A DNA stretch of 64,000 bases from Gammaproteobacteria bacterium (GCA_965116495.1 OZ220696.1:800001-864000), one strand, 5' to 3'; counted from the first letter of the stretch, positions 230 to 45,478 are shown. Notes: generated by a model not told the origin, from the letters alone. A program made the numbers and translations.

Positions 230-399
230 AATTAAAAATTAGGAATTAAGAATTAATGTGCCGCCTGTGGCGGCGGTTTTTCAATGCATCTTATCCCTTC
301 CGCAAGTTGGATCAAAGCACACGGTTACGTAACATTTGTAATTCCTAATTCCTAATTCCTAATTCCTAATTCGTAATTCCTAATTCGTAATTCCTAATT
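230..399. repeat. Facing heptamer arrays: (AATTARR-like)x4 at 230-257 and (TAATTCS)x8 at 339-399 around an ~80-bp core
   Basis: Read directly. The right array overlaps the 3' end of the acyl-CoA dehydrogenase gene. Confidence 0.9.
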
Positions 400-1541
400 G
401 TCTCTTTCGCTATGATCAGTTTTTGTATCTCGGAAGCGCCCTCGTAGATGCGCAACGCGCGGATTTCCCGGTAGAGTTCTTCAACCTTTTCACCCCGGGT
501 TACCCCGCGTCCCCCGAATATCTGAACAGCCTGGTCGATAACCTCCTGGGCCGATTCGGTCGCATACAATTTAGCTATTGCCGCTTCCCGCGTCACGCGC
601 TCAGCGCCGCTGTCCTTGGCCCAGGCGGCACGGTAAACCAGCAGGGCGCTTGCATCAATCGCTACGGCCATATCGGCGATCTTGCCCTGGATCATCTGCA
701 TATCGGCAAGTGTCTTGCCGAACAGTCGCCTGGCGCCGGCATGCTTCACTGTTTCATCCAGCGCGCGCCGGGCGAATCCCAGCGCAGCCGCTCCGACCGT
801 CGGACGAAACACATCCAGCGTGGCCATGGCAATTTTGAAACCCTCACCCGGCCGGGCCAGCAGGTTTGTTTTCGGCACCCTGCAGTCCTCGAACACCAGG
901 CGCGCCAGTGGGTGGGGAGCGATAGTATCGATCCTTTCGGCCACTACCAGCCCGGGGGCATCAGCATCCACAATGAGGACACTCAGACCCCGCCCCCCCG
1001 TTTCCTCTCCGGTCCTGACAAACACGGTATAATAGTCCGCGATACCACCGTTTGAGATCCAGGTTTTCTCGCCATTGATTACGTAATCCGGACCGTCGGT
1101 TACGGCGGAAGTAGTCAGGGAAGCAACATCCGAGCCGGCGCCGGCTTCAGATAATGCAAAAGCGGCAATTTTAGCGCCACTGCGAACCGCCGGCAGGTAA
1201 TCATTCCTTTGTGCCTGATTGCCGAACAGGGCAATGGCTCCGCTGCCCAGTCCCTGCATGGCGAAGACAAAATCCGCCAGGCCGGAATGGCTCGCCAGGA
1301 TCTCCCGAACAAGACATATTGACCTTACATCCACCGGCTTGACGGAAGCCGGCGCGGGCGCGGCATGGATAAGCCACCCGGCATCAGCTATTTGTTTCAA
1401 TAATACCCTGCAGGCATCATCGATATTATCAGGATATTGCCGGGGCAGGTGCCGGCCTGACCATTCTGCAAGTTCAGCGGCAAGGCGCCTGTGGTCCGCC
1501 AGAAAAAAAGGCCAGTCAAGATAGCTGCGGTCAACCATCAA
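366..1541 (-). CDS. Acyl-CoA dehydrogenase (abm-cluster type)
   Basis: [29 protein letters not shown] motifs; coupled to the enoyl-CoA hydratase by a 4-bp overlap. Confidence 0.92.
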
Positions 1542-2347
1542 TCACCTTCGAATTCAGGTGTTTTCTTATTGATAAAGGCAGTGTAAGCGCGTTGGAAATC
1601 CGCTGTCTGCATACAGATTGCCTGGGCCTGGGCTTCAGCCTCTATTGCCTGTTCCAGCCCCATATTCCATTCCTGACGCAGCATGGTTTTGGTGATACCG
1701 TGGGCGAACGCGGGTCCCCGGAGCAACCGTCCGGCCAACTTTTTCGCTTCATCCAGTAATGTATCCGCTGATACCAGAGAGTTATAAAATCCCCAGCGAT
1801 GACCTTCATCCGCACTCATGGACCGACCGGTGTACAGTAATTCCGCCGCACGGCCCTGGCCTATAATCCGGGGCAGTATGGCACAAGCGCCCATATCACA
1901 ACCGGCCAGACCGACACGGGTAAACAGGAAAGCCGTTTTTGCTTCCGGTGTCGCTATACGCATATCGCTCGCCATGGCGATTGCGGCGCCGGCGCCCACA
2001 CAGATACCGTCCACCGCAGCGATGACAGGTTGCGGGCAGTGGATCATGGCCTTGATGAGATCGCCGGTCATGCGGGTGAATTCCAGCAGTTCTTTCATGT
2101 TCTTTTGAGTCAGGGGGCCTATGATATCGTGTACGTCACCGCCGGAGCAGAAGTTGCCTTCAGCACCGGTAATAATCACGACCCTGACGTCATCTGCAGC
2201 GGCCAGGTGGCGAAAGGTATCGCGCATTTCCGCATAGGAAGAAAAGGTGAGCGGGTTCTTTCTTTCCGGCCGGTTCAGGGTCAGCGTCGCTACACCATCG
2301 GAACAGGACCAGTCAAAATGCTGCGGGATATATCCGGACATGCTCAT
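1538..2347 (-). CDS. Enoyl-CoA hydratase/crotonase family protein
   Basis: [28 protein letters not shown] crotonase motifs. Confidence 0.92.
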
Positions 2348-2389
2348 TGATAATTTCCGTGTATGTCAGTGATAAGGCGATTATGGGTA

Positions 2390-3154
2390 TCACATTACTT
2401 CGCCACCGGCTATCGGGATGGACTGGCCGGTGACGGATTCGCTGCCTGGCAGGCATAACCAGGCTACCGCGGTGGCTACTTCTTCCGGTTCGATAAACCG
2501 GTGTTGCGGGTTAGCCGATTTGAGGCGCGCTTCAGCATCCTCCCGCGCCATGCCCGTCTTGTCCATAATCCTGGTTATTGCCTCCGTAATCAAGTCAGTA
2601 TTGGTATAGCCCGGGCAGATTGCATTGACGGTTATACCGGTCCCTGCCAGTTCCAGCGCCAGGGAACGGGTAAGGCCGATGACGCCATGTTTGGCCGCGC
2701 AATAAGCCGCCACATAAGCATAGCCGGTAAGCCCGGCAGTACTGGCTATATTGATGATACGGCCCCAGTCTGCTTCAAGCATCCCGTCCAGCACCTGGCT
2801 GCTGCAATAAAATACACCATCCAGGTTAACGGCAATCGACTGTTTCCAACTGTTATTGTCGATGCGCGCGAATGGACTGCTGCCGGCCATGCCGGCGTTA
2901 TTTACCAGGATGTCAACAGGACCAAACCGGGCTACAGCTTCTGCAAACCCTGCCACTACGGTTTCTTCATCAGCTACGTCCAGCTGTACAGCGGATGCGC
3001 GACCTAACTGCTCCGCCCTGGAATGTAAAGAACTTTCCGTCCGGCCCATCAGGGTAATCCTGGCCCCCAGCCGGTCCATTTCCGCTGCGATCGCTGCGCC
3101 TATACCCTTGCCACCGCCGGTAACCACCACATGTTTATCGTTGAGAGCATTCAT
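2390..3154 (-). CDS. Short-chain dehydrogenase (3-hydroxyacyl-CoA/3-hydroxybutyrate dehydrogenase-like)
   Basis: TGGGKGIG, NNAG, YCAAKHG motifs. Confidence 0.92.
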   Translation of the reverse strand: MNALNDKHVVVTGGGKGIGAAIAAEMDRLGARITLMGRTESSLHSRAEQLGRASAVQLDVADEETVVAGFAEAVARFGPVDILVNNAGMAGSSPFARIDNNSWKQSIAVNLDGVFYCSSQVLDGMLEADWGRIINIASTAGLTGYAYVAAYCAAKHGVIGLTRSLALELAGTGITVNAICPGYTNTDLITEAITRIMDKTGMAREDAEARLKSANPQHRFIEPEEVATAVAWLCLPGSESVTGQSIPIAGGEVM

Positions 3155-3272: not shown

Positions 3273-5720
3273 ATGGGGAAAGACCTGATTGTTGTAGGCA
3301 ATGGAATGGCGCCCAGCCGCGCTTTGGAAAAACTCAACGAACAGGATCCTGATGCCTACAATGTCACAATTTTCAACGCCGAACCGCGCGTCAGCTATAA
3401 CCGCGTCATGTTATCTCCGGTCCTGTCCGGTGAGGAAGATTTTGAGAAAACCATTATTCACGGGGATGACTGGTATTTTAAGCACGGCTTTATTCTCTAC
3501 CGGGGTTGCCCGGTCACTGAAATAGATCGGGAAGCCAGGACAGTCAAGGCCATTAATGGAATTGCCGAGCCTTATGACAAACTGCTGATTGCAACGGGGT
3601 CATCTCCGGTCAAACTTTCCATTCCTGGAAACGACAAGGAAGGGGTGCTTTCGTACAGAGACCTGGACGATGTGAAAGCCATGCTGAGCGCTGCTGAAAC
3701 CAAGCGGCAGGCGGTGGTGATTGGTGGCGGACTGCTCGGACTCGAGGCGGCTGCAGGACTGCGCAACCGGGGTATGGAAGTGACGGTAGTGCACCGCAAC
3801 CCTACACTAATGGACCGCCAGTTGGATGAGACTGCCGGCCACCTGTTACAGCGCGCAATCGAGTCACTCGGCATCCGGGTGTTGACCGGGAGACATACAA
3901 AAGCAATCACCGGCGACGAGCATGTAAAGGGGGTACTGTTTAAGGACGGTAGTAGTATACAAGCGGATATCGTGATCATGGCGGTGGGGATTCGTCCGAG
4001 TGTATGGTTGGCGGATAACGCCGGGTTGAATGTCAACCGGGGAATCGTTGTCGACGAACATATGCGCACCTCTGATCCCGACATCCTCGCAATCGGCGAG
4101 TGCGCTGAATTCGAAGGGAATGTTTACGGTCTGCTTGCACCACTATACGAAATGGCGAACGTCGCTGCCGCCACTTTACTCGGAGATGAGGAGCAACAAT
4201 TCGAAAATCGGGTGACTGCGGCACAACTAAAGGTAACGGGGATTGATCTCTATTCTGCCGGTGACTTTGCCGACAGCGATAATCGGGAAGAGATTGTTTT
4301 GCGGGACCCGAACCAAGGCGTATACAGACGGCTTGTCCTCGAAGACAACCGTTTGGTTGGGACAGTTCTTTACGGTGATACCTCGTCCATGGGATGGTAC
4401 TTCCAGATGATCAAGGACAGCACGGATATCTCCGGTATCCGTGATTACATGATATTCGGGCCCGGTTTTGCAGAAGGCGCGGCCCAAGACCCGACGGCAG
4501 CTGTTGCGTCCCTGCCGGATGATGCGGAGATCTGCGGATGTAACGGTGTAACAAAAGGCGAGATCAAGCAAGCTGTTGACGCTAACAACCTGACTACGCT
4601 GGAAGAGGTGCGCGCCTGCACCAAGGCATCCGCCTCTTGCGGGTCATGTACCGGTCTGGTGGAACAACTGCTGCTCCTGAGACTTGGCGATTCGTACCAA
4701 CCCGCTGAGGTAAAACCCATATGCGGCTGTACCGATCTGAGTCATTCCGATGTGCGCCGGCTTATCAGCGCGCGCAATATCAAAACCATACCCGATTTGA
4801 TGCAGGAACTGGAATGGAAGAGTTCCGGCGGTTGCGCCAAGTGCAAGCCTGCGCTGAATTACTACCTGCTGGCGACCTGGCCGGGTGAATACGTCGATGA
4901 TAAACAATCCCGTTTCATCAATGAGCGGGTACATGCCAACATTCAGAAGGACGGCACTTATTCCGTCGTACCGCGAATGTGGGGAGGATCTACGTCTTCC
5001 AGCGAATTGCGCGCTATTGCGGACGTGGTTGACAAATTCCATATACCGACAGTCAAGGTAACCGGTGGTCAGCGCATCGATATGCTCGGTATCAAAAAAG
5101 AAGACCTGCCTGCAGTCTGGGCGGACCTGAATAAAGCCGGCCTGGTTTCGGGACATGCCTACGGCAAAGCGGTTCGTACGGTAAAAACCTGTGTCGGCAA
5201 GGAATGGTGCCGCTTTGGCACCCAGGATTCCACCGGGCTGGGTATCCGGCTGGAAAAATTCCTGTGGGGTTCATGGACGCCTGCCAAGGTAAAGATGGCG
5301 GTCTCGGGATGTCCGAGAAACTGTGCTGAAGCCACTTGTAAGGATGTGGGCATCGTTTGCGTGGAATCCGGGTATGATGTCCACTTCGCCGGCGCTGCCG
5401 GCATGGATGTCAGGGAGACCGAATTGCTGGGCCATGTCGACAACGAAGATGACGCCATAGAAATAGTGGCTGCCGTTATACAGCTATACCGGGAGCAGGG
5501 ACATTATCTTGAAAGGATCTACAAGTGGGCCAGGCGTGTCGGCGTAGATTCGATCCGGGATGCGGTTGTGGATGATGCAGCCAATCGCAAATCACTGTGC
5601 GCAAGGTTTGTCCACTCACAGAAATTTCATCAGATCGATCCTTGGGAAGAACGGGTAAAAGGCCATGATCAGCATGAATTCGCCCCGATCAAGGAACTCA
5701 GCACTCTGGAGTTGGCTTGA
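3273..5720 (+). CDS. nirB: NAD(P)H-dependent siroheme nitrite reductase, large subunit
   Basis: VGNGMA and GGGLLGLE FAD/NAD motifs; BFD-like CGCNGV...CGSC; KTCVG...C and SGCPRNC siroheme/4Fe-4S ligands. Confidence 0.95.
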   Translation: MGKDLIVVGNGMAPSRALEKLNEQDPDAYNVTIFNAEPRVSYNRVMLSPVLSGEEDFEKTIIHGDDWYFKHGFILYRGCPVTEIDREARTVKAINGIAEPYDKLLIATGSSPVKLSIPGNDKEGVLSYRDLDDVKAMLSAAETKRQAVVIGGGLLGLEAAAGLRNRGMEVTVVHRNPTLMDRQLDETAGHLLQRAIESLGIRVLTGRHTKAITGDEHVKGVLFKDGSSIQADIVIMAVGIRPSVWLADNAGLNVNRGIVVDEHMRTSDPDILAIGECAEFEGNVYGLLAPLYEMANVAAATLLGDEEQQFENRVTAAQLKVTGIDLYSAGDFADSDNREEIVLRDPNQGVYRRLVLEDNRLVGTVLYGDTSSMGWYFQMIKDSTDISGIRDYMIFGPGFAEGAAQDPTAAVASLPDDAEICGCNGVTKGEIKQAVDANNLTTLEEVRACTKASASCGSCTGLVEQLLLLRLGDSYQPAEVKPICGCTDLSHSDVRRLISARNIKTIPDLMQELEWKSSGGCAKCKPALNYYLLATWPGEYVDDKQSRFINERVHANIQKDGTYSVVPRMWGGSTSSSELRAIADVVDKFHIPTVKVTGGQRIDMLGIKKEDLPAVWADLNKAGLVSGHAYGKAVRTVKTCVGKEWCRFGTQDSTGLGIRLEKFLWGSWTPAKVKMAVSGCPRNCAEATCKDVGIVCVESGYDVHFAGAAGMDVRETELLGHVDNEDDAIEIVAAVIQLYREQGHYLERIYKWARRVGVDSIRDAVVDDAANRKSLCARFVHSQKFHQIDPWEERVKGHDQHEFAPIKELSTLELA

Positions 5721-6073
5721 TGTCATCTGATTGCTGGACAACTATAGGAAATGTGGATGATATACCGGTTGCGGGCGCGCGGGTGGTCATCTCCCCCGGC
5801 TGCAGGATAGCGGTATTTCGAACCGAGGACAATCAAGTCTTCGCGCTGGAAGATCGATGCCCGCATCGCAAAGGTCCTATCAGCCAGGGGATCGTCCACG
5901 GCAAGAAGGTAACATGTCCCCTGCACAACCTGGTTATTGACCTGGACAGTGGAAATACGCAGGAATCCGGCATCGTACCGGTATGCACCATATCCACCCG
6001 GGTCGGAGAGAACGGAGAAGTGCTGCTGAATATGGATGACATCCGGGCCAGACTGGAGTCCGGGACCAGATAA
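5717..6073 (+). CDS. nirD: Nitrite reductase small subunit (Rieske)
   Basis: CPH...CPLH Rieske motif; overlaps the nirB stop. Confidence 0.92.
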   Translation: MMSSDCWTTIGNVDDIPVAGARVVISPGCRIAVFRTEDNQVFALEDRCPHRKGPISQGIVHGKKVTCPLHNLVIDLDSGNTQESGIVPVCTISTRVGENGEVLLNMDDIRARLESGTR

Positions 6074-6108: not shown

Positions 6109-7266
6109 TCAGCGGTTGGGCGTATGACCGCAAACCATGCCGGCGATGATCATCTTCTGTATGTTCGAGGTCCCTTCGACTATTTGCAGGGACTTGGCGT
6201 CGCGATAGAACCGTTCGGCCGGGTATTCCGTGGAATAACCGTAGGACCCGAAGATTTTCATACACTCGTTTGCCGCGTGCACCGCTGCTTCGGACGCAGC
6301 AAGTTTGGCCATGGAGGTTTCATACTGGTTGGGCCTGCCCTGATCCTTTAACCAAGCGGCCTTGTATACCAGCAGTTGCGCAGCCTGGTGTTCCACCGCC
6401 ATGTCGGCAATCTGGGACTGTATCATCTGGTGGCGTGAAATGGGTTTGCCGAATTGCTTACGCTCGTTTGCATAGTCAACGGCCAGTTGTAGTGCGCCAC
6501 CGGCCACACCCAGGGCGCCGGCGGCACAACCGATGCGGGTATTGTTCAACTGCCACATGCACATCTTGAAGCCGTTGTTAAGTTCGCCGAGCAGGGCGTT
6601 TTTGGGAACACGTGCGCCTGCAAAGATAAATTCACCGGTCGGGGAGCAATGCAGACCCAGCTTGGTGTCGATGGGCCGGGCAGTACAGCCTTCCAGGTTC
6701 TTGGGTTCGATGATAAAGCAACTGATGCCCTTGTTGCCCTTGTCCCGGTCCGTATAGGCGTACAACAGGCCGGCGTCGCCTATATGGGCGTTGGAGATCC
6801 ATATCTTGCTGCCATGCAGTTCATAATGGTCGCCCCTGTCGATGGCGTGGGTCTTCATGTTGGCAACATCGGAACCGGTATCCGGCTCAGTCATGGCAAA
6901 GAACCCTATTCGGGCGCCATTGATCCAGCCGGGAATGTATTTCTCCTGTTGTTCCTGTGTGCCGAATTCAGCTACTGACAGGGGAGCGCCGAGGTTCTGC
7001 ATGTTGAAGGGCAGTCGCCATGAGGCCGATACCTGGCTAATCTGCTCCGCCATGAGCACGGATTCCAGGAAGCCCATCCCGTTTCCGTTCAATTCTTCCG
7101 GCAACACACATGAAAAAAAACCGAGTTCGCCCATTTCTGCCACGCGTTCCAGCTTGAATTCATGGTTTTTTTCTTCCTGTTCGAGTGTCGGCGCAATTTC
7201 TTCCAGGGCAAATCGCCGGGCCGTATCCTGTACCAGACGCTGCTCTTCGGTTAATTCAAAAAACAT
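6109..7266 (-). CDS. Glutaryl-CoA dehydrogenase, non-decarboxylating type
   Basis: ACAD motifs (TEPDTGSD, GSKIWISNA, VEGTSNI). Segments such as MGELGFF, YAYTD, FIIEPKN, SPTGE and YGYSTEYP resemble the Desulfococcus-type enzyme as recalled. Co-operonic with gcd genes. Confidence 0.8.
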   Translation of the reverse strand: MFFELTEEQRLVQDTARRFALEEIAPTLEQEEKNHEFKLERVAEMGELGFFSCVLPEELNGNGMGFLESVLMAEQISQVSASWRLPFNMQNLGAPLSVAEFGTQEQQEKYIPGWINGARIGFFAMTEPDTGSDVANMKTHAIDRGDHYELHGSKIWISNAHIGDAGLLYAYTDRDKGNKGISCFIIEPKNLEGCTARPIDTKLGLHCSPTGEFIFAGARVPKNALLGELNNGFKMCMWQLNNTRIGCAAGALGVAGGALQLAVDYANERKQFGKPISRHQMIQSQIADMAVEHQAAQLLVYKAAWLKDQGRPNQYETSMAKLAASEAAVHAANECMKIFGSYGYSTEYPAERFYRDAKSLQIVEGTSNIQKMIIAGMVCGHTPNR

Positions 7267-7279
7267 GGTTGATTCTCTC

Positions 7280-7501
7280 TTATGCAGACTCGATAGACAT
7301 GAGTGGCTGATCCTCCTCCACTTCGTCGCCTTCCTTGACCAGGATTTGTTTCACCTTGCCGTCACAGGGAGCATAGACCGGCGTTTCCATTTTCAAAGCC
7401 TCGATGATAAGCACTTCGTCATCCTCTTCGAGGACTTCGTTCAGTGTTGCCGTAATTTTCCAGATTGTTCCCGACAGGGGCGCCAATACCTCTTCCGCCA
7501 T
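7280..7501 (-). CDS. gcdC: Biotin carboxyl carrier subunit of the Na+-translocating decarboxylase
   Basis: 73-aa biotinyl domain with EALKME at the biotin-lysine site. Confidence 0.85.
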   Translation of the reverse strand: MAEEVLAPLSGTIWKITATLNEVLEEDDEVLIIEALKMETPVYAPCDGKVKQILVKEGDEVEEDQPLMSIESA

Positions 7502-7517: not shown

Positions 7518-8621
7518 TTATTGCAAGATTGTTAGAAATATACCGGCAGCAATGACGGTACCGATTACACCGGCGATATTGGGGCCCATGGCAACCATGA
7601 GCAGGTAATTCTTTTTATCCGCCTCAGCCCCAATTTTCTGAACCACCCGGGCCGCCATCGGCACGGCAGAGACCCCGGCCGCGCCGACCAGGGGATTGAT
7701 CTTGTCCGGGATAAAAATATTCAGCAGTTTGGCCAGCAGTATGCCGCTTGCCGTACTGATCATGAATGCGAACATGCCGAGGAAGAAAATCAGTATGACG
7801 TCACTACGTAAAAAACTGTCTGCGCTCATGGTTGCGCCTATACTGACGCCAAGGAATATGGTTGCTATATTCATCAGGGAATTCTGGGCGGCATCAGTCA
7901 AACGATCGACCACCTTGGATTCCCGGAACAGGTTGCCCAGCATGAACATGGACACCAGGGGCGCAGAAGCAGGTACCATCAGGATAATCACCATGGCGGC
8001 TATTATGGGAAACAGCAGCTTCTCCCTCGGACTGATCTTACGGCCTTTGCGCATGCGGATTTTTCGCTCATTTTCCGTCGTCAACAAACGCATGATAGGG
8101 GGCTGGATGATAGGCACCAGCGCCATGTAGGAATAGGCGGCAACCGCGCAGGCACCGAGCAGGTGCGGCGCCAGTTTCGCCGCCAGAAAGATAGTCGTGG
8201 GTCCGTCCGCCCCGCCAATAATGCTGATGGTGGCGGCATCTTCCAGGCTGAAACCCATCCAGCAAGCCAGAAAAAACGTAAGGTAAACACCCACCTGCGC
8301 GCCTGCGCCCAGAAAGATGAGTAATGGTTGCGAGAGTAACGGGCCGAAATCGGTCAGCGCGCCAAGACCCAGGAAGATCAGGGGGGGAATGATGCGCCAT
8401 TCGATCCCGTGGTGATAGAAGCGCCAGAGCAATCCGTCTCCGGGCTCCATCAGCCCGGTCAACGGCAGGTTGGCAAGGAGAATGCCGAAACCTATGGGCA
8501 GCAGCAACAATGGTTCATACTGCCTGGTGACAGCCAGGTAGAGCAGGGTCAGTCCAATCAGCCACATCAGCAACATTTCGGGCGTGACGGAAAAAATCCC
8601 CATGTTTTCTATAAACGCCAT
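7518..8621 (-). CDS. gcdB: Na+-translocating decarboxylase beta subunit
   Basis: EPLLLLPIGFG, IIGGADGPT, GVSAVPMAARV, AMGPNIAGVIG OadB/GcdB motifs. Confidence 0.93.
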   Translation of the reverse strand: MAFIENMGIFSVTPEMLLMWLIGLTLLYLAVTRQYEPLLLLPIGFGILLANLPLTGLMEPGDGLLWRFYHHGIEWRIIPPLIFLGLGALTDFGPLLSQPLLIFLGAGAQVGVYLTFFLACWMGFSLEDAATISIIGGADGPTTIFLAAKLAPHLLGACAVAAYSYMALVPIIQPPIMRLLTTENERKIRMRKGRKISPREKLLFPIIAAMVIILMVPASAPLVSMFMLGNLFRESKVVDRLTDAAQNSLMNIATIFLGVSIGATMSADSFLRSDVILIFFLGMFAFMISTASGILLAKLLNIFIPDKINPLVGAAGVSAVPMAARVVQKIGAEADKKNYLLMVAMGPNIAGVIGTVIAAGIFLTILQ

Positions 8622-8749
8622 TATTCTTCTTTATTCTCCGGCTTCCTGTTTACCACCAGCGCGAGCACCTTGACGGCGAAATACAACATTGCCATTCCGG
8701 CGAATACACCGCCGATACCGTTAAGGAATATTTCCAGTGCCTGTTCCAT
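8621..8749 (-). CDS. gcdD: Small membrane subunit (OadG/GcdD-like), 42 aa
   Basis: Manual translation MEQALEIFLNGIGGVFAGMAMLYFAVKVLALVVNRKPENKEE; one TM helix; TAATG coupling to gcdB; below the ORF-track cutoff. Confidence 0.8.
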   Translation of the reverse strand: MEQALEIFLNGIGGVFAGMAMLYFAVKVLALVVNRKPENKEE

Positions 8750-10785: not shown

Positions 10786-10899
10786 CGAACGAGGCTGATG
10801 TCATTGATTCCAATTGGTGGTTTAATCTGTGCAATAGCGGCTATAATGTACTGGCAGTCCTGTGGCTGCCATAATAATCAATCAGATGGGATATCGTTC

Positions 10900-11298
10900 A
10901 TGCAAATTGTACTACCGTCCGGCTGGCCCCGTCCTCAAGGCTATTCCAACGGGGTTGCCGCGCGCGGCAAGCTGATCTTTGTCGCAGGACAGATTGGCTG
11001 GGATAGAGATAATATCTTAATCAGCGATAACCTGGCTGAACAGGTGCGCCAGACACTGAAAAATACAATTGCCGTACTGGCCGAGGCAGGTGCGGGACCT
11101 GAACATGTAACCAGGATGACCTGGTATATCCTGGACAAACAGGAGTATCGGGCTTGCTTAAAGGAAATAGGGGAAGCCTACCGGGAAGTCATGGGCAGGA
11201 ACTACCCGGCTATGGCCATGGTGCAGGTCACTGCATTGATTGAGGACCGGGCCCGGGTGGAAATTGAAACGACTGCAGTTCTACCCGATCAATCCTGA
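10900..11298 (+). CDS. RidA/YjgF family enamine/imine deaminase
   Basis: PSGWPRPQGYSNG, FVAGQIGWD, RVEIETTA; start moved to ATG 10900. Confidence 0.9.
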   Translation: MQIVLPSGWPRPQGYSNGVAARGKLIFVAGQIGWDRDNILISDNLAEQVRQTLKNTIAVLAEAGAGPEHVTRMTWYILDKQEYRACLKEIGEAYREVMGRNYPAMAMVQVTALIEDRARVEIETTAVLPDQS

Positions 11299-14523: not shown

Positions 14524-14583
14524 ACATGCGTTATAATTTACCGGGCATGTAACGACATGAAGGACAGGGTGGGAGAATCTAAG

Positions 14584-24309: not shown

Positions 24310-24414
24310 TATCCGGTCTGGCAGGGGAGGGGCAGACCCCCGCTTACAACCCTGCCTCGGGGGCCAGGGCAGGCATGCGGGGGCATGTTTAAATCTGTCC
24401 CCCCCCATATTCTT

Positions 24415-28864: not shown

Positions 28865-28897
28865 TTCGCTTACCTTTGTTTTACGGATGCAAATAGT

Positions 28898-30976: not shown

Positions 30977-31025
30977 GTTTTTGATGAGCACTTCGCCAAT
31001 GTGGACAGAGACATCTGTGCACTCC

Positions 31026-33116: not shown

Positions 33117-33125
33117 TATGCGGCC

Positions 33126-38159: not shown

Positions 38160-38343
38160 CGATTGCCCCCCCTATTAATCAAGACGAATTCGTCCTCACG
38201 TCTCCTATATTAAAACAACATTATGGACAACGTGATATTTTTTATTTTAATACACCTGTATTTAAATAATTTATAATGACGGAGATAGAATGGATTCGTA
38301 CATTCCCTGACAGCACAATTGTATTGCAAGGCGGAACTGAACT

Positions 38344-39414
38344 ATGACATCAGCAACGAAACGCCCCGGTCCCCGGTTCGGGGTCTGGGCGGTCGTCTAC
38401 GGTACGTCGGCATCACTCCAGCATCCTGAAGATCCCGTAGACGCATCGTGGATACGCAACCGGGACTTGGTGCTTGAGGCGGAGGCGCTCGGGATAGACT
38501 CCGTGCTTGTGGCGCAGCACATCGTCAATCCCTTCGGAGACGAATTCAACCAGCTTGAAACGCTGACTGCTTGCGGCGCTCTTGCTGCACTGACGGAAAG
38601 AATCGAGATCATCGCGGCTATCAAGCCGTACCTGTTCCACCCGGCTGTATTCGCGAAGATGGCGTTGCAAATTGAAGAGATCAGCCAGGGGCGTTTTTCA
38701 CTCAATTTTGTCAATGCGTGGTTTCGCCCTGAGTTCGAGAAAGCGGGAATTCCTTTTCCCCCGCACGATGAGCGCTATGTCTACGGCGGCGAATGGCTGC
38801 GCGTCGTCAAGAAGCTCATATCGGGCGAACGGCTGACCATCGACGGCGACAACTTCAAGCTGGACGGCTACCAGTTTAAACCTGCCTCAAAGTGGCGGCC
38901 GCGTCCCTTGCTTTACTCGGGCGGCGAATCCGAGGCGGCGCTCAATCTCACCGTCGAGTTGTGCGACACCTGGTTCATGTTCGGGCAACCGCTGGAAAAT
39001 ATCGCCGGCAAGATCACCGCCATGCGCAAACGCCCGCGCAGCGGTACACCACTCAGCTATGGTGTGTCTGCGTTTCCTTTCGCGCGCCCGACGCAGTCCG
39101 AGGCAGAGGAGGCGCTCGCTTATGCCTTCGAATTGCGTGAAAAGGACAAGGAAGTCTACGAGGCCCTGCACCGGAATGCCGACCCGGAAGTCGTAACCTC
39201 AAAAGTCATGGCCAAGGTGCCGGGCGTCGGCGTCGGTAATGGCACCGGTTGTGGATTCACCGGTTCCTACGATGAAGTTGCAAGGCGCATTGCCGCGTTT
39301 CATGATGCCGGCATTGAAATAATACTGCTCGAATTCCAGCCGTTTGAGCGGGAAATGCGGCGTTTTGCAGAAGAAGTCATGCCGCGGGTGGCAAGACTCT
39401 GCTCCCTGAAGTGA
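38344..39414 (+). CDS. Luciferase-like monooxygenase (SsuD/SfnG-like)
   Basis: IEIIAAIKP, HPAVFAKM, GRFSLN, HDERY, YSGGES. Confidence 0.88.
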   Translation: MTSATKRPGPRFGVWAVVYGTSASLQHPEDPVDASWIRNRDLVLEAEALGIDSVLVAQHIVNPFGDEFNQLETLTACGALAALTERIEIIAAIKPYLFHPAVFAKMALQIEEISQGRFSLNFVNAWFRPEFEKAGIPFPPHDERYVYGGEWLRVVKKLISGERLTIDGDNFKLDGYQFKPASKWRPRPLLYSGGESEAALNLTVELCDTWFMFGQPLENIAGKITAMRKRPRSGTPLSYGVSAFPFARPTQSEAEEALAYAFELREKDKEVYEALHRNADPEVVTSKVMAKVPGVGVGNGTGCGFTGSYDEVARRIAAFHDAGIEIILLEFQPFEREMRRFAEEVMPRVARLCSLK

Positions 39415-39454
39415 CGCTATAATGGCGTGAATCATAACCAGTTTAACCCGGCTG

Positions 39455-40276
39455 ATGCATGTTGCCCGCGTAAAGCTTGATTCAGGCGTTTCCATCTCTT
39501 ACAGGGAGGCGGGTCAAGACAATCCTGTCACCATCGTCCAGGTCCATGGCCTGGGGACCGGACACAATAATTTCGATCTGTTGACTCCGCACCTGTCCAA
39601 ACGCCTGCACACTTACGATATCGACCTGCCCGGATATGGCGATTCCGAATGCGGACCGGGCGAGCGCGGCATCACTTATTTTGCCGACAGCGTCGCACAA
39701 TTCATAGAAACACTTGAACTGGCGCCCGTCCACGTGCATGGAACGTCGATGGGCGGGTGTGTGGCAATGGTGCTTGCCGGAAAACGGCCGGAACTCATCG
39801 ACAGGCTGGTAATCAGTTGTTCTTTCGCGAAATTTGACCGGGCAAGCCATGTTATCTTCAAAACATGGCGTATGGCCGCTGCCGCCGGTGTTGAAGCGCT
39901 GGCCCTGATCACCAGCCACCAGGGTTTTTCACGGGGCTTCTGGGACAGGCCTGAGAGCGACAATACGGTGGATGCATTTGTCTATGCGCTGCGCGGCATG
40001 ACCCCCCTGGAGTTTCTCCGTGATCTCACATTGATAGAAAACCTGGATATCAGCGCCGATGCCGCAAGTATTCGTGCGCCGACACTCCTTCTCGGTACCG
40101 ATGAAGATATCATGACGCCGATGCAATCGTCCCCGAGCGGACTCGGTATGACGGACCTACACAAGCTGATACCTGATTCGAAACTGGACATGCTGGAAAA
40201 CTGCGGTCACTTTATCTCAATCGAGCGCCCCGCCGAGACGGCACGGGCCATTGCCGATTTCCTGCTCAGCGCGTAA
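39455..40276 (+). CDS. Alpha/beta hydrolase, paralog of 25755-26594
   Basis: QVHGLGTGHNNFDLLTP, GTSMGG, DEDIM, CGH. Confidence 0.9.
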   Translation: MHVARVKLDSGVSISYREAGQDNPVTIVQVHGLGTGHNNFDLLTPHLSKRLHTYDIDLPGYGDSECGPGERGITYFADSVAQFIETLELAPVHVHGTSMGGCVAMVLAGKRPELIDRLVISCSFAKFDRASHVIFKTWRMAAAAGVEALALITSHQGFSRGFWDRPESDNTVDAFVYALRGMTPLEFLRDLTLIENLDISADAASIRAPTLLLGTDEDIMTPMQSSPSGLGMTDLHKLIPDSKLDMLENCGHFISIERPAETARAIADFLLSA

Positions 40277-40591: not shown

Positions 40592-40696
40592 CACCCATAG
40601 ACCCTGACGAATCTATTAAAAAGCAAACGACTTTGCGGAATGATAAGTATCTATCCATGATTTCCACCAGCGCCAAACAGGTTGCTTGAATCGCTT

Positions 40697-41950
40697 ATGA
40701 GACAATACGTTCCTTTATTTTCATGGCTCTTTCCCGTCCTCCTGCTGCTGTTCGGCTGTGAGGCGGAACAAGCTGTTCCTGCAACCGGGGAAGCAGTATC
40801 AGATCCATCAGCACCAGCAGATAGCTTTGTTGACGTAAGCAAGGAACCGCTGGCAAATGACCTGTTCGGTAAGGTTGCAACGATACCGGAAACACCACAT
40901 CCGCATTGGGTCTGGATTGCCGATATGGCGGCAAGCTCAATGCCGGACGGGCGCGCCTACCTGTATGATGGGGACACGGCCAGGGTATTGGGTATGCTGA
41001 ATACCGGTTATTCATTTAATGCTTTGAACATACCGGGCCACTACCGGGAAGTCTATTCTGCTGAAACCTACTATGCCAGGACGACGCGCGGCAAACGGAG
41101 CGACGTCGTCAGTATTTACGACCCTTTCAAGTTTGTGCCGGTAGCTGAAATAGAGATTCCTGCAAAACGCGCATCCACATTACCAAGACTGGCGGACTCA
41201 GCGCTGACTGACGATAACCGGTTCATGGCCGTTTTCAACCTGACACCGGCAACCTCTCTGAGTATCGTGGACCTGGAGCAGCGCCGTTTTGCCGGGGAAG
41301 TCATGACGCCCGGTTGCGCGATGGCTTATGCGGCGGGAGACAGGCGCTTTTTTGCGCTGTGCAGCGACGGAGCGCTGCTGCTGATCGACCTTACCGACGA
41401 AGGTACGCAAGCCACGGCCCAAAGAAGCAAGCGTTTTTTTGACCCACTCGAGGATCCAATCCTGGAGACCGGCGTGCGCCACGGCGATACCTGGTATTTC
41501 ATGTCGGTACTGGGAAAGGTTCATCCTGTTGAAATTTCCGCAGACGGGCCGGTTTTTTCCGCTACCTGGTGGTACCTCGACGAGCAGGACAGAGAAGCAA
41601 ACTGGCGCATAGGCGGCATGCAGCCTGTCGCCCTGCACAGCACCAGGCAACACCTCTACATATTGATGCACCAGGGTGATTTTTATACCTACGAATTTCC
41701 AGGGCCGGAAATCTGGATCTATGATATGGCAACCCGGACCCGGATAAACAAAATCAAGACCAGGCACTCCAGCATCTCTATAGACGTGAGCCAGGATGAC
41801 AACCCGTTGCTATACACCATAACCGAGGATTTGAGCAGCCTGGATATCTATGATGCAACCTCCGGTGAATACCTGCGTTCAGCCGATGAACTTGGTGTTA
41901 CGCCATTTTTGATTCAGCCGCTGCCGTTGCTGCACACAGGGCTGGACTGA
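40697..41950 (+). CDS. TTQ amine dehydrogenase heavy (beta-propeller) subunit, MauB/AauB-like
   Basis: YSAETYYARTTRGKRSDVV, FNLTPATS, PGC, WRIGGMQ, LMHQG; signal peptide ending LLLFGC. Confidence 0.88.
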   Translation: MRQYVPLFSWLFPVLLLLFGCEAEQAVPATGEAVSDPSAPADSFVDVSKEPLANDLFGKVATIPETPHPHWVWIADMAASSMPDGRAYLYDGDTARVLGMLNTGYSFNALNIPGHYREVYSAETYYARTTRGKRSDVVSIYDPFKFVPVAEIEIPAKRASTLPRLADSALTDDNRFMAVFNLTPATSLSIVDLEQRRFAGEVMTPGCAMAYAAGDRRFFALCSDGALLLIDLTDEGTQATAQRSKRFFDPLEDPILETGVRHGDTWYFMSVLGKVHPVEISADGPVFSATWWYLDEQDREANWRIGGMQPVALHSTRQHLYILMHQGDFYTYEFPGPEIWIYDMATRTRINKIKTRHSSISIDVSQDDNPLLYTITEDLSSLDIYDATSGEYLRSADELGVTPFLIQPLPLLHTGLD

Positions 41951-41994
41951 TTCCATGACGGCAAATCAGCGGGCAACAATAATGAGGAGTAATA

Positions 41995-42513
41995 ATGAAG
42001 CTTTTTGATCGCTGGTTTCAACAAAAAACCCGCTCCCTGGCGCGCCATACCTCACGCCGGAGCTTTTTAAAGAAAGCCGGGACAGTCCTGGTCGGCGCAG
42101 GGGCAATACCCTTACTGCCCGTTGCAAGGGCGGATACGGCCCCGGATGAAGGTTCCATATCAGGGCCCGAAGGCGATCCGGGGAAATGCGAATACTGGCG
42201 CAACTGCGGTATGGACGGTTTCCTGTGTACCTGTTGCGGCGGCAGTCATACCAGTTGCCCTCCGGGGACCGAAATGGCGCCGATGACCTGGGTAGGCACT
42301 TGCAAAAACCCTGGAGACGGGCGTGATTACATCATTGCCTACAATGACTGCTGCGGCAAGAGTACCTGCAACCGTTGCATGTGCAACCGTAACGAAGGCG
42401 ACCTGCCAAATTATTTTCCGGCCAAGAGCAATGATATCAACTGGTGCATGGGCTCAAGCAATAATGTCTACCATTGCACGACCACCATCCTGCTGGGCCT
42501 GGCGGTCGAGTAG
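41995..42513 (+). CDS. TTQ amine dehydrogenase light subunit, MauA/AauA-like
   Basis: Tat motif SRRSFLK; Cys-rich CEYWRNC...TWVGTC...YNDCCG...NDINWC with both TTQ tryptophans. Confidence 0.93.
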   Translation: MKLFDRWFQQKTRSLARHTSRRSFLKKAGTVLVGAGAIPLLPVARADTAPDEGSISGPEGDPGKCEYWRNCGMDGFLCTCCGGSHTSCPPGTEMAPMTWVGTCKNPGDGRDYIIAYNDCCGKSTCNRCMCNRNEGDLPNYFPAKSNDINWCMGSSNNVYHCTTTILLGLAVE

Positions 42514-42533: not shown

Positions 42534-43856
42534 ATGGGTGCAAATATCAGTAACCAGGAGATCGCCTCACTGGTGGAGCCTGCACGGGTACATAAGCGTG
42601 TTTATACGGACCCGACCATTTTTGAACTGGAAATGGAACGCATCTGGGGCAGTGCCTGGGTCTATATCGGACATGAAAGCCAGGTAAAGTCCCCCGGAGA
42701 TTACTTCACCACAACACTCGGCAAGCAACCGATCATCGTCACCCGGCACGATGATCACCAGGTACACGTCCTGTATAACCGTTGCGCCCATAAAGGCGCA
42801 CAACTGGCTATCGAAGCATGCGGCCACGCGCAACAATTGCGCTGCGCCTATCATGGTTACGTGTTCGATACCGCCGGTAACCTGGTACATATTCCCAAGC
42901 CGGAAGGATATAAAGGCTCGGTATTTACCCGTGACAGCCACCTGACCAATATACGCAAGGTCGCCAGAGTCGAGATATATCGCGGTTTTATTTTTGCCAA
43001 CCAGTCGCACCAGGGACCGGACCTGAAGAGCTGGCTTGGTGCAGCCATTACCTCGTTTGATAACGCCGTGGACAGGTCACCTACGGGTGAGATTGAAATG
43101 ACCGGTGGCGTGTTGCGCTATATGCACGATGCCAACTGGAAAATTCTGCTGGAAAACGTATCAGACAACCTGCACCCGGCCGTTACTCACCAATCCGCCT
43201 GGCAGCCGGCAAAACAAATGGCCCGGCAATATCCGGAAAATGAAAAACCCCTGCCTCTGGCTATGCTGGAACCGTTCGGTTCCAGCTATGAATTTTTCGA
43301 TTCCATAGCCATGACGACCTGCGGCAACGGCCATACCTGGTCCGGAGGCAATGCTACGATACATATCGGTTATCCGCGTGAATCAAAGTACGTGCAGGAT
43401 ATGGTCGCAGCTTACGGTGAGGAGGAAACCAACCGGATCCTGGCCATGCAACGGCAGAACACGATCATCTACCCGAGTATCGCCTTCAAGAGCGCGTTGC
43501 AGACGATTCGGGTTTACCGCCCCATCGCCGTGGACAAGACTATCCAGGAAACCTGGACATTCAAACTCGGTGGCGTATCGGATGACATGCTGCATACCTC
43601 GGTACTCTATAACCAGTTGATCTTCTCCCCGTTTTCCATAGCGGGCCACGATGATTACGAAGCCTACCACCGTATTCAACACGGCCTGCAGACGGAGGCA
43701 TCCGAGTGGGTTAGCCAGCACCGTCACTACGGCCGTGACCAGGCCAACCAGGACGGTACCACCCAGGCATTGGGGACCAGCGATATCGTGTTCCGGCACG
43801 AGTTCGAAGCCTGGAAGAATTACATGACTGATTCATCCGCAGATGACGCAGATTAA
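42534..43856 (+). CDS. Rieske oxygenase alpha subunit, paralog of 14584-15906
   Basis: CAHKG...CAYHG, DNLHPAVTH, HDDYEAYHR; start moved to ATG 42534. Confidence 0.92.
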   Translation: MGANISNQEIASLVEPARVHKRVYTDPTIFELEMERIWGSAWVYIGHESQVKSPGDYFTTTLGKQPIIVTRHDDHQVHVLYNRCAHKGAQLAIEACGHAQQLRCAYHGYVFDTAGNLVHIPKPEGYKGSVFTRDSHLTNIRKVARVEIYRGFIFANQSHQGPDLKSWLGAAITSFDNAVDRSPTGEIEMTGGVLRYMHDANWKILLENVSDNLHPAVTHQSAWQPAKQMARQYPENEKPLPLAMLEPFGSSYEFFDSIAMTTCGNGHTWSGGNATIHIGYPRESKYVQDMVAAYGEEETNRILAMQRQNTIIYPSIAFKSALQTIRVYRPIAVDKTIQETWTFKLGGVSDDMLHTSVLYNQLIFSPFSIAGHDDYEAYHRIQHGLQTEASEWVSQHRHYGRDQANQDGTTQALGTSDIVFRHEFEAWKNYMTDSSADDAD

Positions 43857-43979
43857 CGCAGATAAAAAGACAGTTTTCTGGTCGTAGAGCGGGCAAAATA
43901 CTTCCCGGAATATTGGATTGGAGCCTCCGTACTCAATGAAACAAAATATAATCTGCGCTGATCTGCGCCATCTGCGGAT
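43835..43979. repeat. Facing (CGCAGAT)x3 arrays forming a 29-bp inverted repeat (26/29)
   Basis: ATCCGCAGATGACGCAGATTAACGCAGAT at 43835-43863; ATCTGCGCTGATCTGCGCCATCTGCGGAT at 43951-43979. Confidence 0.88.
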
Positions 43980-44011
43980 AAATATTTGGATAACCTGCGG
44001 ACAAAAATAGC

Positions 44012-45478
44012 ATGTGGAAACCGCCGGAGAGAGTCAAGCATAAACCACAACCCGGGGTAAGCCCCGATATGGATGAGGCTGCTGCTGCGCTGATGTTCAC
44101 CCCGGTCAGTCTCGGTCCTTTTACCCTGGAACAACGTACCTGGGTGCCGGCGATGGTGCCCTGGCGTTCCAATGAAGACGGCTTTGTCACCGACGATGTG
44201 CTGGGCTGGTATGAACGGTTTGCCAGGGGGCAGCCCGGAGCCATCGTCATCGAGGCAACCGGTATCCGGGACATTCCCAGCGGACCTTTGCTGCGTATCG
44301 GGGATGACCGGTTTATCCCGGGCCTGAGAGAACTGGCGGATGTGGTGAGAACGGCCAGCGCCGGACATACCCGCTTGCTTATCCAGGTGATCGACTTTCT
44401 CGCTATCCGGCGCCGCCCGGATCCGGCCAAGTACTTTTCCCGTTTTCTGGCTGTCACCGATCTCCACAGGGAGAAGCTGTCCGCCCATGACTGGCCGGAG
44501 CAACGTATCAGGACACACCTGGCCGGTTTGCCTGATGAGGAACTTGATGAAATATTGACTGTTGAAGAACTGGAAGCCTTGCGCATGGGATACCGGGAAC
44601 GGGTCACGGACATGCATCTGCCCCATGTAAAAAACCTGCCGCAGGTACTGCCTGACCTGTTTGCGCAGGCTGCCCGGCGCGCCCGGGAGGCAGGTATCGA
44701 CGGTGTGGAACTCCATTATGCCCATGCCTACACGATGGCTTCGTTTCTGTCTGCGACAAATTGCCGTACGGACGGTTACGGCGGCCCCCGGGAAAACAGG
44801 GTGCGTTTACCCCTGGAGATATTCAACCATATACGCGACGTGGTCGGTGAGGACTATTGTGTCGGCTGCCGTTTCCTCAGCGATGAGTGCATAGAAGGCG
44901 GCAACACAGTTGAAGACGCCATGTATTTCGCAGTCGAATTTGCACAAGCCGGCATGGATTTCATCTCACTGTCCCGGGGAGGCAAATTTGATGACGCCAA
45001 ACAACCGCAAATCGGCTGGGCTGCTTATCCTTATACGGGACGCAGCGGATATGAATGCATGCCCGGTTATATCTCCGATGAATTCGGCCCTTTTGGCCGT
45101 AACGTTGAACCCACCACACAAATCAAAACGGCAATTGATGCGGCCGGATACGCCACGCCCGTGGTTGTCATCGGCGGAATTCACGGGTTCAGGCAGGCGG
45201 AAACCCTGCTGCGGGAGGGCAAAGCCGATATCATAGGCGCAGCCCGCCAGAGTCTTGCCGACCCCGACTGGTTTCTGAAACTCAGGCTGGGGAAGGGTGA
45301 CCAGGTAAGGGTATGCGAATATACCAACTACTGCGAAGGTCTGGACACGAAACACAAACAGGTAACCTGCCAGCTCTGGGACCGGCTGCAACTGGATGAA
45401 CAGGGCATAAAATTATCCAGCGACGGCCGGCGCCGCCTGGTCGCCCCCGAGTGGACGCGTTTGCCCGGAGCAGATTAG
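44012..45478 (+). CDS. NADH:flavin oxidoreductase (old yellow enzyme family)
   Basis: DGVELHYAHAY, RTDGYGG..ENRVR, ADIIGAARQSLADPDW, Cys-containing tail CEYTNYC...VTC. Confidence 0.88.
   Translation: MWKPPERVKHKPQPGVSPDMDEAAAALMFTPVSLGPFTLEQRTWVPAMVPWRSNEDGFVTDDVLGWYERFARGQPGAIVIEATGIRDIPSGPLLRIGDDRFIPGLRELADVVRTASAGHTRLLIQVIDFLAIRRRPDPAKYFSRFLAVTDLHREKLSAHDWPEQRIRTHLAGLPDEELDEILTVEELEALRMGYRERVTDMHLPHVKNLPQVLPDLFAQAARRAREAGIDGVELHYAHAYTMASFLSATNCRTDGYGGPRENRVRLPLEIFNHIRDVVGEDYCVGCRFLSDECIEGGNTVEDAMYFAVEFAQAGMDFISLSRGGKFDDAKQPQIGWAAYPYTGRSGYECMPGYISDEFGPFGRNVEPTTQIKTAIDAAGYATPVVVIGGIHGFRQAETLLREGKADIIGAARQSLADPDWFLKLRLGKGDQVRVCEYTNYCEGLDTKHKQVTCQLWDRLQLDEQGIKLSSDGRRRLVAPEWTRLPGAD

Follow-up and report, generated by a model that had tools for sequence, protein, structure and literature searches.

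A 64,000-nucleotide stretch of a gammaproteobacterial genome (the window, meaning this whole stretch; G000:C1:800001-864000 of the closed 4.34-Mb genome G000, 99.5% complete) carries, between positions 366 and 45478, a gene cluster whose fixed core combines an iad-like set, centered on a Rieske oxygenase alpha subunit (RoA1) that resembles the indole-3-acetate (IAA) oxygenase subunit IadD of Variovorax, with a gcd set for a glutaryl-CoA dehydrogenase and a predicted Na+-pumping glutaconyl-CoA decarboxylase. We read this genus-wide cluster as encoding aerobic IAA-type breakdown via CoA esters to glutaryl-CoA, followed by the Na+-pumping decarboxylase, and, judging from homology and gene content, place the full funnel slightly above an even chance. 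Genes of the 2-aminobenzoyl-CoA monooxygenase (abm) type and a tryptophan tryptophylquinone (TTQ) amine dehydrogenase are likely partners of the iad-gcd core, and a molybdenum (Mo) hydroxylase/hydantoinase block is accessory to it. The first-pass annotation of the window had proposed a single funnel from indolic amines or acids, through anthranilate, to glutaryl-CoA, usable with or without oxygen; Pfam and NCBIfam profile searches located every module it named in its place within 366-45478, and the aerobic iad-like core with gcd stood, but neither the oxic/anoxic use nor the branch modeled on the Iaa enzymes of Aromatoleum did. Each enzyme type is known; the combination was not found in the literature searched, a search with subscription journals largely outside its coverage.

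In the proposed reaction sequence, the periplasmic TTQ enzyme would oxidize tryptamine-like amines and an enzyme encoded outside the window would oxidize the aldehyde to indoleacetate, the weakest step of the scheme. RoA1 and its beta subunit RoB would then insert one oxygen atom and, by homology to the Variovorax system, an IadJ-like short-chain dehydrogenase/reductase (SDR) would form dioxindole-3-acetate. A ligase would make the CoA ester, from which a thiolase-fold/DUF35 pair may split off acetyl-CoA by a retro-aldol reaction, with isatin as the putative product. A cyclase-family hydrolase could open isatin to isatinate, which a fused IadAB-like 2-oxoacid oxidoreductase could convert directly to 2-aminobenzoyl-CoA, thus making an anthranilate ligase unnecessary. 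AbmA would dearomatize this ester with O2 and NADH, and its satellite enzymes would open and shorten the ring, with glutaryl-CoA as the predicted end product; finally, the dehydrogenase would stop at glutaconyl-CoA and GcdABCD would pump Na+ while making crotonyl-CoA, a step to which strong homology points. The block of Mo hydroxylase, hydantoinase and luciferase-like monooxygenase (LLM) genes would be an optional feeder for an N-heterocycle. If this scheme is true, IadAB gains a function, the end product of abm beta-oxidation is named, and an aerobe conserves energy at glutaconyl-CoA. The wider proposal, of a complete, undescribed, aerobic and CoA-channelled pathway from tryptamines to Na+-pumping decarboxylation in which a second alpha subunit, RoA2, serves host-made substituted indoles, is possible but doubtful.

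The iad-like core and the glutaryl-CoA genes

The core genes are as follows (window coordinates).

6109..7266, minus strand: non-decarboxylating-type glutaryl-CoA dehydrogenase (best PDB match 3MPI)
7280..7501, minus strand: GcdC, biotin carrier, 73 amino acids (Pfam Biotin_lipoyl)
7518..8621, minus strand: GcdB, Na+-translocating decarboxylase beta subunit (TIGR01109, 487 bits, cut-off 191)
8621..8749, minus strand: GcdD/OadG-like membrane anchor, 42 amino acids (sequence reading; OAD_gamma, E=4e-5, and NF040909, both below cut-off)
8773..10506, minus strand: GcdA, glutaconyl-CoA decarboxylase carboxyltransferase (PDB 1PIX, 744 bits; 3GF3, 716 bits)
14557..15906, plus strand: RoA1, IadD-like Rieske alpha subunit (PDB 7YLS/9O71, 472 bits)
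15896..16396, plus strand: RoB, IadE-like Rieske beta subunit (Pfam Ring_hydroxyl_B)
16397..18335, plus strand: DUF485 protein and ActP-like Na+/monocarboxylate symporter, the latter starting at 16686 (Pfam PF04341 and SSF; PRK09395, 702 bits, cut-off 750)
18372..20015, plus strand: IadF-like CoA ligase (Pfam AMP-binding)
20002..21165, plus strand: IadG-like thiolase-fold protein, likely a retro-aldolase (best PDB matches 9MYR and 6OK1)
21162..21617, plus strand: stand-alone DUF35 protein, ChsH2-type Zn ribbon/OB fold (Pfam), matching the fused DUF35-SDR protein of the iadH position over its N-terminal part only
21669..22400, plus strand: SDR, IadJ-like by position (53% identity to the SDR after the cyclase in locus L059)

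In a PDB search RoA1 matched the Variovorax IadD structures 7YLS and 9O71 far above the next family (153 bits), and it carries all ten residues described for the IAA pocket and iron site of IadD (Asn210, Leu211, His216, His221, Phe251, His311, Lys322, Arg329, Tyr362 and Asp377; PMC10374108). Among loci with IadD-like genes fetched from other genomes, a careful tree of 31 rows resolves the family into three clades; the 31 rows are a subset of a 73-row tree that was run in quick mode only, with 15 near-duplicate rows omitted. Clade A contains the nearest relatives of IadD, and its loci often hold iorAB and a cyclase gene; clade B includes a third IadD-like paralogue of G000; and clade C (support 95/95) unites RoA1 and RoA2. 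Motif counting found no near-identical IadD among the fetched loci. The ligase, thiolase, DUF35 and SDR genes recur beside IadD-like genes in all three subclades, the IadF-like ligase being 45-50% identical to the ligase that follows the Rieske pair in clade-A loci and the IadG-like thiolase 54-60% identical to its clade-A counterpart, and the likeness to IadF, IadG and IadJ is measured on clade-A genes in the same positions (45-60%). Structure match, pocket residues and gene content together bear out the iad-like character first ascribed to this Rieske set.

The thiolase-fold protein is nearest, in the PDB search, to the lipid-transfer-protein-type thiolases 9MYR and 6OK1, and the IadJ-like SDR had no PDB match at E<=1e-38. 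Thiolases of the lipid-transfer-protein type act with DUF35 proteins as retro-aldolases. In Variovorax, IadCDE is described as a monooxygenase, IadJ as forming dioxindole-3-acetate and IadFGH as reductively removing the side chain to give C8H7NO2 (PMC12633357). At the iadH position, 19 of 21 clade-A loci have DUF35 and SDR fused, and 20 of 20 clade-C loci have a stand-alone DUF35 gene; the SDR half of IadH had no match above 30% identity anywhere in G000, and no full IadH was recovered. Without that half, isatin would be the expected product of the thiolase-fold/DUF35 step.

Two side observations concern the wider family. The pCAR1-type Pseudomonas plasmids H9-H11 and plasmids of Sulfitobacter and Roseibium carry IadD-family genes at 44-46% identity, and near the third G000 paralogue (G000:C1:1696472-1709365) lie open reading frames (ORFs) that by eye are kynureninase-like and ACMSD-like, together with an aldehyde:ferredoxin oxidoreductase (AOR) operon.

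The glutaryl-CoA dehydrogenase matches 3MPI at 351 bits, versus 193 bits for decarboxylating enzymes, and its residues R84, L85, N88, V363 and E364 align with R87, V88, N91, V366 and E367 of 3MPI, position 88 being Leu rather than Val. Arg87 and Val366-Glu367 have a role in non-decarboxylating glutaryl-CoA dehydrogenase. The protein scores 437 bits with NF045552, below the cut-off of 470, yet this is still its best model by 80 bits. For GcdA, the family next to the two decarboxylase structures reaches 140 bits, and with GcdC and GcdD all parts are present (carboxyltransferase, beta subunit, biotin carrier and anchor), so that GcdABCD is a complete glutaconyl-CoA decarboxylase set, predicted to pump Na+. 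A search of G000 for a decarboxylating glutaryl-CoA dehydrogenase recovered none (two queries, at most 33% identity, motif absent), which makes the non-decarboxylating-type enzyme the only one found there. G000 also possesses an aa3-type oxidase operon; the pairing of such a dehydrogenase with Gcd is presented as a trait of obligate anaerobes in PMC5852087, and a Geobacter version of the route lacks the pump (PMC2996986). This genus is not alone in combining Gcd with an aerobic life: gcdA was found in one of 399 other members of the class scored (G360), and relatives of the dehydrogenase are plentiful, the best 120 being 78-89% identical and some labelled Pseudomonadales, Xanthomonadales or Woeseia. 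What is specific is the tie between gcd and clade-C iad genes: gcdA lies within the fetched flanks of 23 of 32 clade-C loci, including some with RoA1 at only 70-82% identity, and of 0 of 47 clade-A/B loci.

All 22 congeners of G000 contain RoA1 and gcdA, and 20 contain the dehydrogenase, the two without it having fragmented assemblies; the TTQ light chain occurs in 20 and abmA in 14. gcdA lies no more than 10 kb from RoA1 in 18 of the 22, the other four being fragmented with the two genes on different contigs, and the TTQ genes lie at most 35 kb from RoA1 in 13, further off in G005 and on other contigs in six. Across the 16 congeners whose regions were fetched and mapped, gene order is collinear, most stretches ending at dksA-(queF)-smc, and the differences resemble deletions and small insertions: G018 and G022 have lost the hydantoinase and Mo genes and kept both LLM genes, the second CoA ligase and Nramp-like transporter are often kept where the hydantoinase and Mo genes are missing, and the stretch with the TonB receptor, second LLM enzyme and second hydrolase is patchy. 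Collinear order with deletions and insertions argues for an inherited cluster with gcd and the iad-like set as its fixed core, and upholds the view that the modules are linked in relatives, gcd being the partner tightest to the core; the congeners are nonetheless relatives and not independent samples, and their synteny is partly plain inheritance. From abmA to the SDR ending at 22400 the genes share one strand with gaps of at most 51 bases, the gcd genes run in the opposite direction, and GC content across the cluster is flat (51-58%, versus 54.7% genome-wide). Among 45-kb segments of G000 the cluster holds 13 of 13 counted families, the next-best segment 8 and the median segment 2, a count that is partly circular because the families were chosen from this very region; the conserved order in 16 congeners is the stronger evidence against chance.

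The abm genes, the middle steps and the amine dehydrogenase

The partner genes flank the core on both sides.

366..1541, minus strand: acyl-CoA dehydrogenase, abm satellite, AbmE-like (Pfam Acyl-CoA_dh; collinear in congeners)
1538..2347, minus strand: crotonase-fold enzyme, AbmD-like (NCBIfam PRK08258, 485 bits, cut-off 330)
2390..3154, minus strand: SDR, AbmB-like (Pfam adh_short; 47-56% homologues after abmA in L062 and L094)
10798..11298, plus strand: RidA-family enamine/imine deaminase, AbmH-like (Pfam PF01042; true start probably near 10900)
11298..11753, plus strand: MarR regulator, AbmC-like by position (Pfam MarR)
12139..14523, plus strand: AbmA-like fusion of flavin monooxygenase and old yellow enzyme (OYE) reductase (NF006101)
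40682..42513, plus strand: TTQ amine dehydrogenase heavy and light chains (Pfam; light-chain PDB match)
42534..43856, plus strand: RoA2, second IadD-like alpha subunit, without a beta subunit of its own (PDB 7YLS, 399 bits)
44012..45478, plus strand: stand-alone OYE flavin reductase (Pfam)

For the three satellites at 366-3154, AbmE, AbmD and AbmB are the names that we take to apply. The AbmA-like protein matches NF006101 over its full length, at 1040 bits against a cut-off of 1078, and this family includes salicylyl-CoA 5-hydroxylase. That abm and TTQ genes belong with indole genes gains support from unrelated lineages, where IadD-like genes have abmA as a neighbor in 3 of 35 clade-A loci (L059, L062 and L094) and TTQ genes as neighbors in 3 of 47 clade-A/B loci (L055, L061 and L097), an ORF that by eye resembles an aldehyde dehydrogenase lying between the TTQ and IadD-like genes in L061. 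The congeners G001, G003, G010 and G019 lack abmA and still hold most satellites, the OYE and IadAB.

The candidate for the middle steps lies 540 kb from the cluster (G000:1349327-1353870, locus L186) as a fused IadAB-like indolepyruvate-oxidoreductase gene of 1253 amino acids, accompanied by a cyclase-family hydrolase gene. Its alpha part is 59-63% identical to the gene in clade-A iad loci; the fused gene is found in 15 of the 22 congeners, the cyclase adjoins it in 17 of 17 loci, and in L044, with RoA1 at 80% identity, IadAB, cyclase and OYE are all inside the cluster. The iorA/iorB (iadAB) genes, absent from the window, are treated as marker genes of iad loci in PMC9613470, in whose accessible text no reaction was seen assigned to them; that paper alone surfaced in a literature search on these middle steps. 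IadAB could convert isatinate to 2-aminobenzoyl-CoA by oxidative decarboxylation, and direct formation of the ester would explain why an AbmA-like gene is found here although no ligase exceeds the TIGR02262 cut-off (the best 2-aminobenzoate-CoA ligase match in G000 scores 313 bits against 375, and another ligase family could stand in). Free anthranilate, the intermediate expected at first pass, is thus probably not on the route. Two other loci were noted in passing: a second cyclase, at G000:3038020, was rejected as IadI (31-34% identity, signal-peptide-like start), and a polyketide-synthase-like ORF of 3182 amino acids, judged by eye, lies near the IadAB-like gene (G000:C1:1367944-1377492).

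At the other end of the cluster, the TTQ light chain is about equally close to aromatic amine dehydrogenase (158 bits) and methylamine dehydrogenase (154 bits) in its best PDB matches, and its substrate is not settled by these scores. G000 encodes three TTQ enzymes with a single mauE/mauD-like pair, at G000:2.70 Mb, common to all; no mauD/E genes lie in the cluster, and no MauG over cut-off was found in G000. RoA2 starts 21 bases after the light chain. The pair of paralogous Rieske alpha subunits that had been noted is indeed there, 50% identical to one another and with only one beta subunit between them. In the tree RoA2 is a long-branch duplicate nested within clade C, in the RoA1 clade, and its pocket differs by H311->Q and L211->V, both changes occurring in 13 of 13 congener copies. 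A second IadD-like gene with the same signature was seen in L091 (about 6.8 kb, Burkholderiales); the quick tree places it in clade A, and the shared signature may be convergence. The family of the stand-alone OYE is very large and highly conserved, and the OYE recurs in the iad loci L044 and L071; its best 120 relatives are 69-95% identical and, with the exception of one 'dimethylglycine catabolism A', are named only generically.

These features invite a different diet, in which the cluster as a whole, and the TTQ-RoA2-OYE operon most of all, would be tuned to substituted indoles, such as halogenated or hydroxylated host tryptamines, instead of IAA. The fixed pocket changes, the long branch and the tight spacing between the light chain and RoA2 all fit, as does habitat. 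Bromotryptamine alkaloids are abundant in sponges. A run with the label 'sponge metagenome' contains a relative's 3.3-kb ligase-thiolase-DUF35 stretch (161 differences over about 2.5 kb compared) and more distant gcd pieces, and several isolate labels among the closest named records of G000 are, we assume, from sponge genome sets; the host bacterium is likely sponge-associated. RoA1, however, has the IadD pocket unchanged, and RoA2 is absent from 3 of the 16 congeners mapped, two of these three retaining the TTQ genes, and we judge a substituted-indole diet improbable.

Several observations weigh against the IAA-type funnel itself. The pocket signature is family-wide, occurring in 77 of 78 anchor proteins, and does not discriminate; Variovorax IadD is closer to clade A (694 bits to L059) than to RoA1, which forms a separate clade outside the Variovorax subclade in a tree from which IadD itself is absent, and with RoA1 in its own subclade and IadD nearer clade A, the substrate may be an IAA analogue. 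No IadC-type reductase lies in the window, no IadI orthologue was found in G000 (31-34% identity at best, versus 54-61% among genes in the IadI position), and the cyclase beside IadAB matches isatin hydrolase at a weak 25 bits. Eight of the 22 congeners lack abmA and seven lack the IadAB-like gene, with G009, G011, G013 and G017 missing both while keeping RoA1 and gcdA. Variovorax iadC-K2 without iadAB already yields anthranilate (PMC12633357), and the accessible text on AbmA gives its reaction and states what follows only as beta-oxidation (PMC4539516, PMC3534580). Being the only glutaryl-CoA sink, gcd may owe its retention to the turnover of lysine or tryptophan, and in G360 no iad genes lie within the 40 kb fetched around gcd. 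A 3-hydroxyanthranilate dioxygenase is present in 13 of 15 congeners tested, and since 3-hydroxyanthranilate can arise from IAA (PMC12852158), a second route to glutaryl-CoA is possible.

Such points lend themselves to an explanation by historical neighborhood, under which the iad-like operon is real, gcd is a general glutaryl-CoA sink (for lysine, tryptophan via 3-hydroxyanthranilate, and dicarboxylates), and the TTQ, abm and Mo blocks are independent catabolic units that came together at a single place on the chromosome. The modules have been lost independently (abmA is left in 14, hydantoinase/Mo in 7 and IadAB in 15 of 22 congeners), the nirBD genes described below show that unrelated genes were inserted at this site, gcd is divergent from the iad-like run and does not stand beside iad in G360, the congeners are related and their synteny is partly inheritance, and G000 is crowded with paralogues (28 Rieske-type, 43 hydantoinase-type, 15 Mo large-subunit and 69 TonB ORFs, and 39 Rieske-alpha matches). 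Shared history accounts less well for gcd-iad adjacency at RoA1 identities of 70-82% despite other orders and flanks (L039, L041, L042, L043, L046 and L049), or for abm and TTQ genes each standing beside IadD-like genes in unrelated taxa, and we think it unlikely, if a serious contender. We retain the aerobic IAA-type funnel as the preferred reading.

Accessory genes, oxygen and genomic setting

The remaining genes of the cluster are listed below.

3273..6073, plus strand: nirBD NADH nitrite reductase, passenger outside the pathway (TIGR02374, 923 bits, over cut-off)
22759..25668, minus strand: second CoA ligase and Nramp-like transporter, closing the leftward run of hydantoinase genes (Pfam)
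25755..32066, minus strand: accessory alpha/beta hydrolase, hydantoinase B (HydB, 757 amino acids), hydantoinase A and LLM enzyme (Pfam)
32244..35887, plus strand: accessory xanthine-oxidase-family Mo hydroxylase, FAD, Fe-S and Mo subunits (Pfam)
35892..40276: TonB receptor (minus strand), second LLM enzyme and second alpha/beta hydrolase (plus strand) (Pfam)

The first-pass annotation had likened the Mo enzyme and hydantoinase to IaaIJK/IaaCE of Aromatoleum and extended the funnel to anoxic conditions. In its favor, the Mo hydroxylase, ATP-dependent lactamase and CoA ligase lie together, hydB and the Mo large subunit have orthologues in the same 7 of 22 congeners, the gcd module is of anaerobe type, and G000 encodes AOR-family and DMSO-reductase-family enzymes. 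Set against this, HydB is a 757-residue protein with a fused acetone-carboxylase-gamma domain (Acetone_carb_G) and IaaE is tabulated at 564 residues (PMC8453981), a difference of length and architecture that was judged without the IaaE sequence. Look-alikes of HydB in the Atlas are mostly from Actinomycetota, and a metagenome scan with HydB recovered one congener-like locus only. The Aromatoleum iaa pathway uses a dedicated B12-dependent mutase; no separate one was found in G000, whose sole PF01642 match is a 1094-residue ORF at least 145 kb away. No HGD-D/Bcr-type benzoyl-CoA-reductase subunit (PF06050) was found in 23 genomes, the control matching in 2 of 14. One of four AOR-family ORFs was compared with the PDB and proved AOR-like (BamB 59 bits versus 197), and the other three have no bam-type neighbors by eye. 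In three regions of Rhizobium and Aureimonas plasmids, Mo-hydantoinase pairs have neither indole nor mutase genes annotated in their vicinity; the plasmid-borne proteins closest to the Mo subunit, at 40-41%, stand beside unrelated hydantoinases, and plasmid relatives overall reach 27-43%. An L092-derived family tried as a stand-in for Iaa was discarded, being a 16-genome group with best HydB matches of at most 29% and no test of Iaa. Absence of hydantoinase/Mo genes from 80 GTDB loci is not counted here, the 10-kb flanks being shorter than the 12-kb distance in the window.

As for respiration, no NirK over cut-off was found, motif scans run with no positive control gave no match to NarG, NapA, NosZ, NirS, cbb3, CydA or Na-NQR, and an atpE motif scan gave none. 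Twelve DMSO-reductase-family matches in G000 are mostly without an assigned role, and some anaerobic respiration is possible. The IadDE and AbmA reactions require O2, and ring breakdown in this cluster appears to need it. We regard a funnel running with or without oxygen through Iaa-like enzymes as very improbable; the Mo/hydantoinase block is probably a generic hydroxylate-then-open unit for an N-heterocycle.

Genes that the first pass had not listed are gcdC, gcdD, nirBD, ActP with DUF485, the two LLM enzymes, two alpha/beta hydrolases, the TonB receptor, the Nramp-like transporter and the stand-alone OYE. nirBD, which separates the abm satellites at the left end from the gcd operon, occupies this site in 1 of the 16 mapped congeners (G014; the G016 stretch stops short) and occurs also in L034. 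Promoter and terminator scans stayed near the shuffled level (13 versus 8.7+/-3.0 and 19 versus 12.4+/-3.8).

Other observations stand apart from the pathway. Between gcdA and ridA, 10612-10785 is an intergenic element with a 33-bp unit in three tandem copies, resembling a small dispersed repeat with partial matches at 29 places in G000; contigs of other runs often end or skip at its edges. A 7-bp tandem array, TAATTCC in 8.7 copies, covers 339-399 at the end of the first gene. Short intergenic ORFs at 11780-11986 (minus), 22514-22744 (plus) and 40388-40591 (plus) look passenger-like, one with a weak sub-cut-off XhlA-family match and two with none. Elsewhere in G000 (G000:C1:3470635-3473845, 4158659 and 3924857) lie ORFs that, by eye, we take to be BoxB/BoxC-like, PaaA-like and phenylacetyl-CoA:acceptor-oxidoreductase-like, which suggests a general reliance on CoA-dependent aromatic routes.

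Comparison with known systems

The cluster makes three matters testable: the role of iadAB, marker genes of iad loci yet unneeded for anthranilate formation in Variovorax; the fate of the AbmA product, given in the accessible texts only as 'beta-oxidation' (PMC4539516, PMC3534580); and the use by aerobes of a two-enzyme Na+-pumping glutaryl-CoA route ascribed to obligate anaerobes. Beyond the bacteria of plant roots, it would also place iad-like indole catabolism in a lineage that probably lives with sponges, in which it could turn over host tryptophan-derived metabolites.

With the abm genes of Azoarcus/Aromatoleum evansii the window shares the monooxygenase-OYE fusion and the SDR, crotonase, acyl-CoA dehydrogenase, RidA and MarR satellites, a list reportedly due to Schuhle et al. 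2001. In contrast to that system, no anthranilate-CoA ligase was found, the window has no thioesterase, gcd interrupts the row of satellites, and the AbmA-family substrate is not fixed by sequence, salicylyl-CoA 5-hydroxylase being one of its members. The TTQ light chain has both Trp positions and the Cys pattern of AauAB (PDB 2AGL), with the heavy chain likewise upstream, and differs in having no mauD/E in the cluster, no MauG over cut-off and a match to aromatic amine dehydrogenase only marginally nearer than that to one methylamine dehydrogenase. The side-by-side Mo hydroxylase, two-subunit ATP-dependent lactamase and CoA ligase recall the Aromatoleum iaa set (IaaIJK, IaaCE and mutase), from which the block departs in HydB architecture and length, in the lack of a detected separate mutase or anaerobic ring reduction, and in its extra LLM and hydrolase genes.

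The Desulfococcus multivorans dehydrogenase (3MPI) and the Acidaminococcus fermentans Gcd (1PIX) have counterparts here in one operon, which encodes a dehydrogenase of that type together with GcdA, GcdB, the biotin carrier and a small anchor; unlike the obligate anaerobes to which this pair is ascribed (PMC5852087), G000 has an aa3 oxidase, no Bcr-type subunit and O2-dependent upstream ring chemistry. Closest of all is the Variovorax iad locus (PDB 7YLS/8H2T/9O71; PMC9613470, PMC10374108, PMC12633357 and PMC12852158), with which the cluster shares Rieske alpha and beta subunits with the IAA-pocket residues, the succession of CoA ligase, thiolase-fold protein and SDR that follows them, and an IadAB-like gene in the genome. 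It differs in belonging to a separate subclade (472 versus 694 bits), in a DUF35 protein without the SDR half, in the lack of a detected IadI orthologue and of IadC and IadK in the window, in ActP in place of the ABC binding protein, and in an IadAB that is fused and 540 kb away, and the core here is joined to gcd, abm and TTQ genes.

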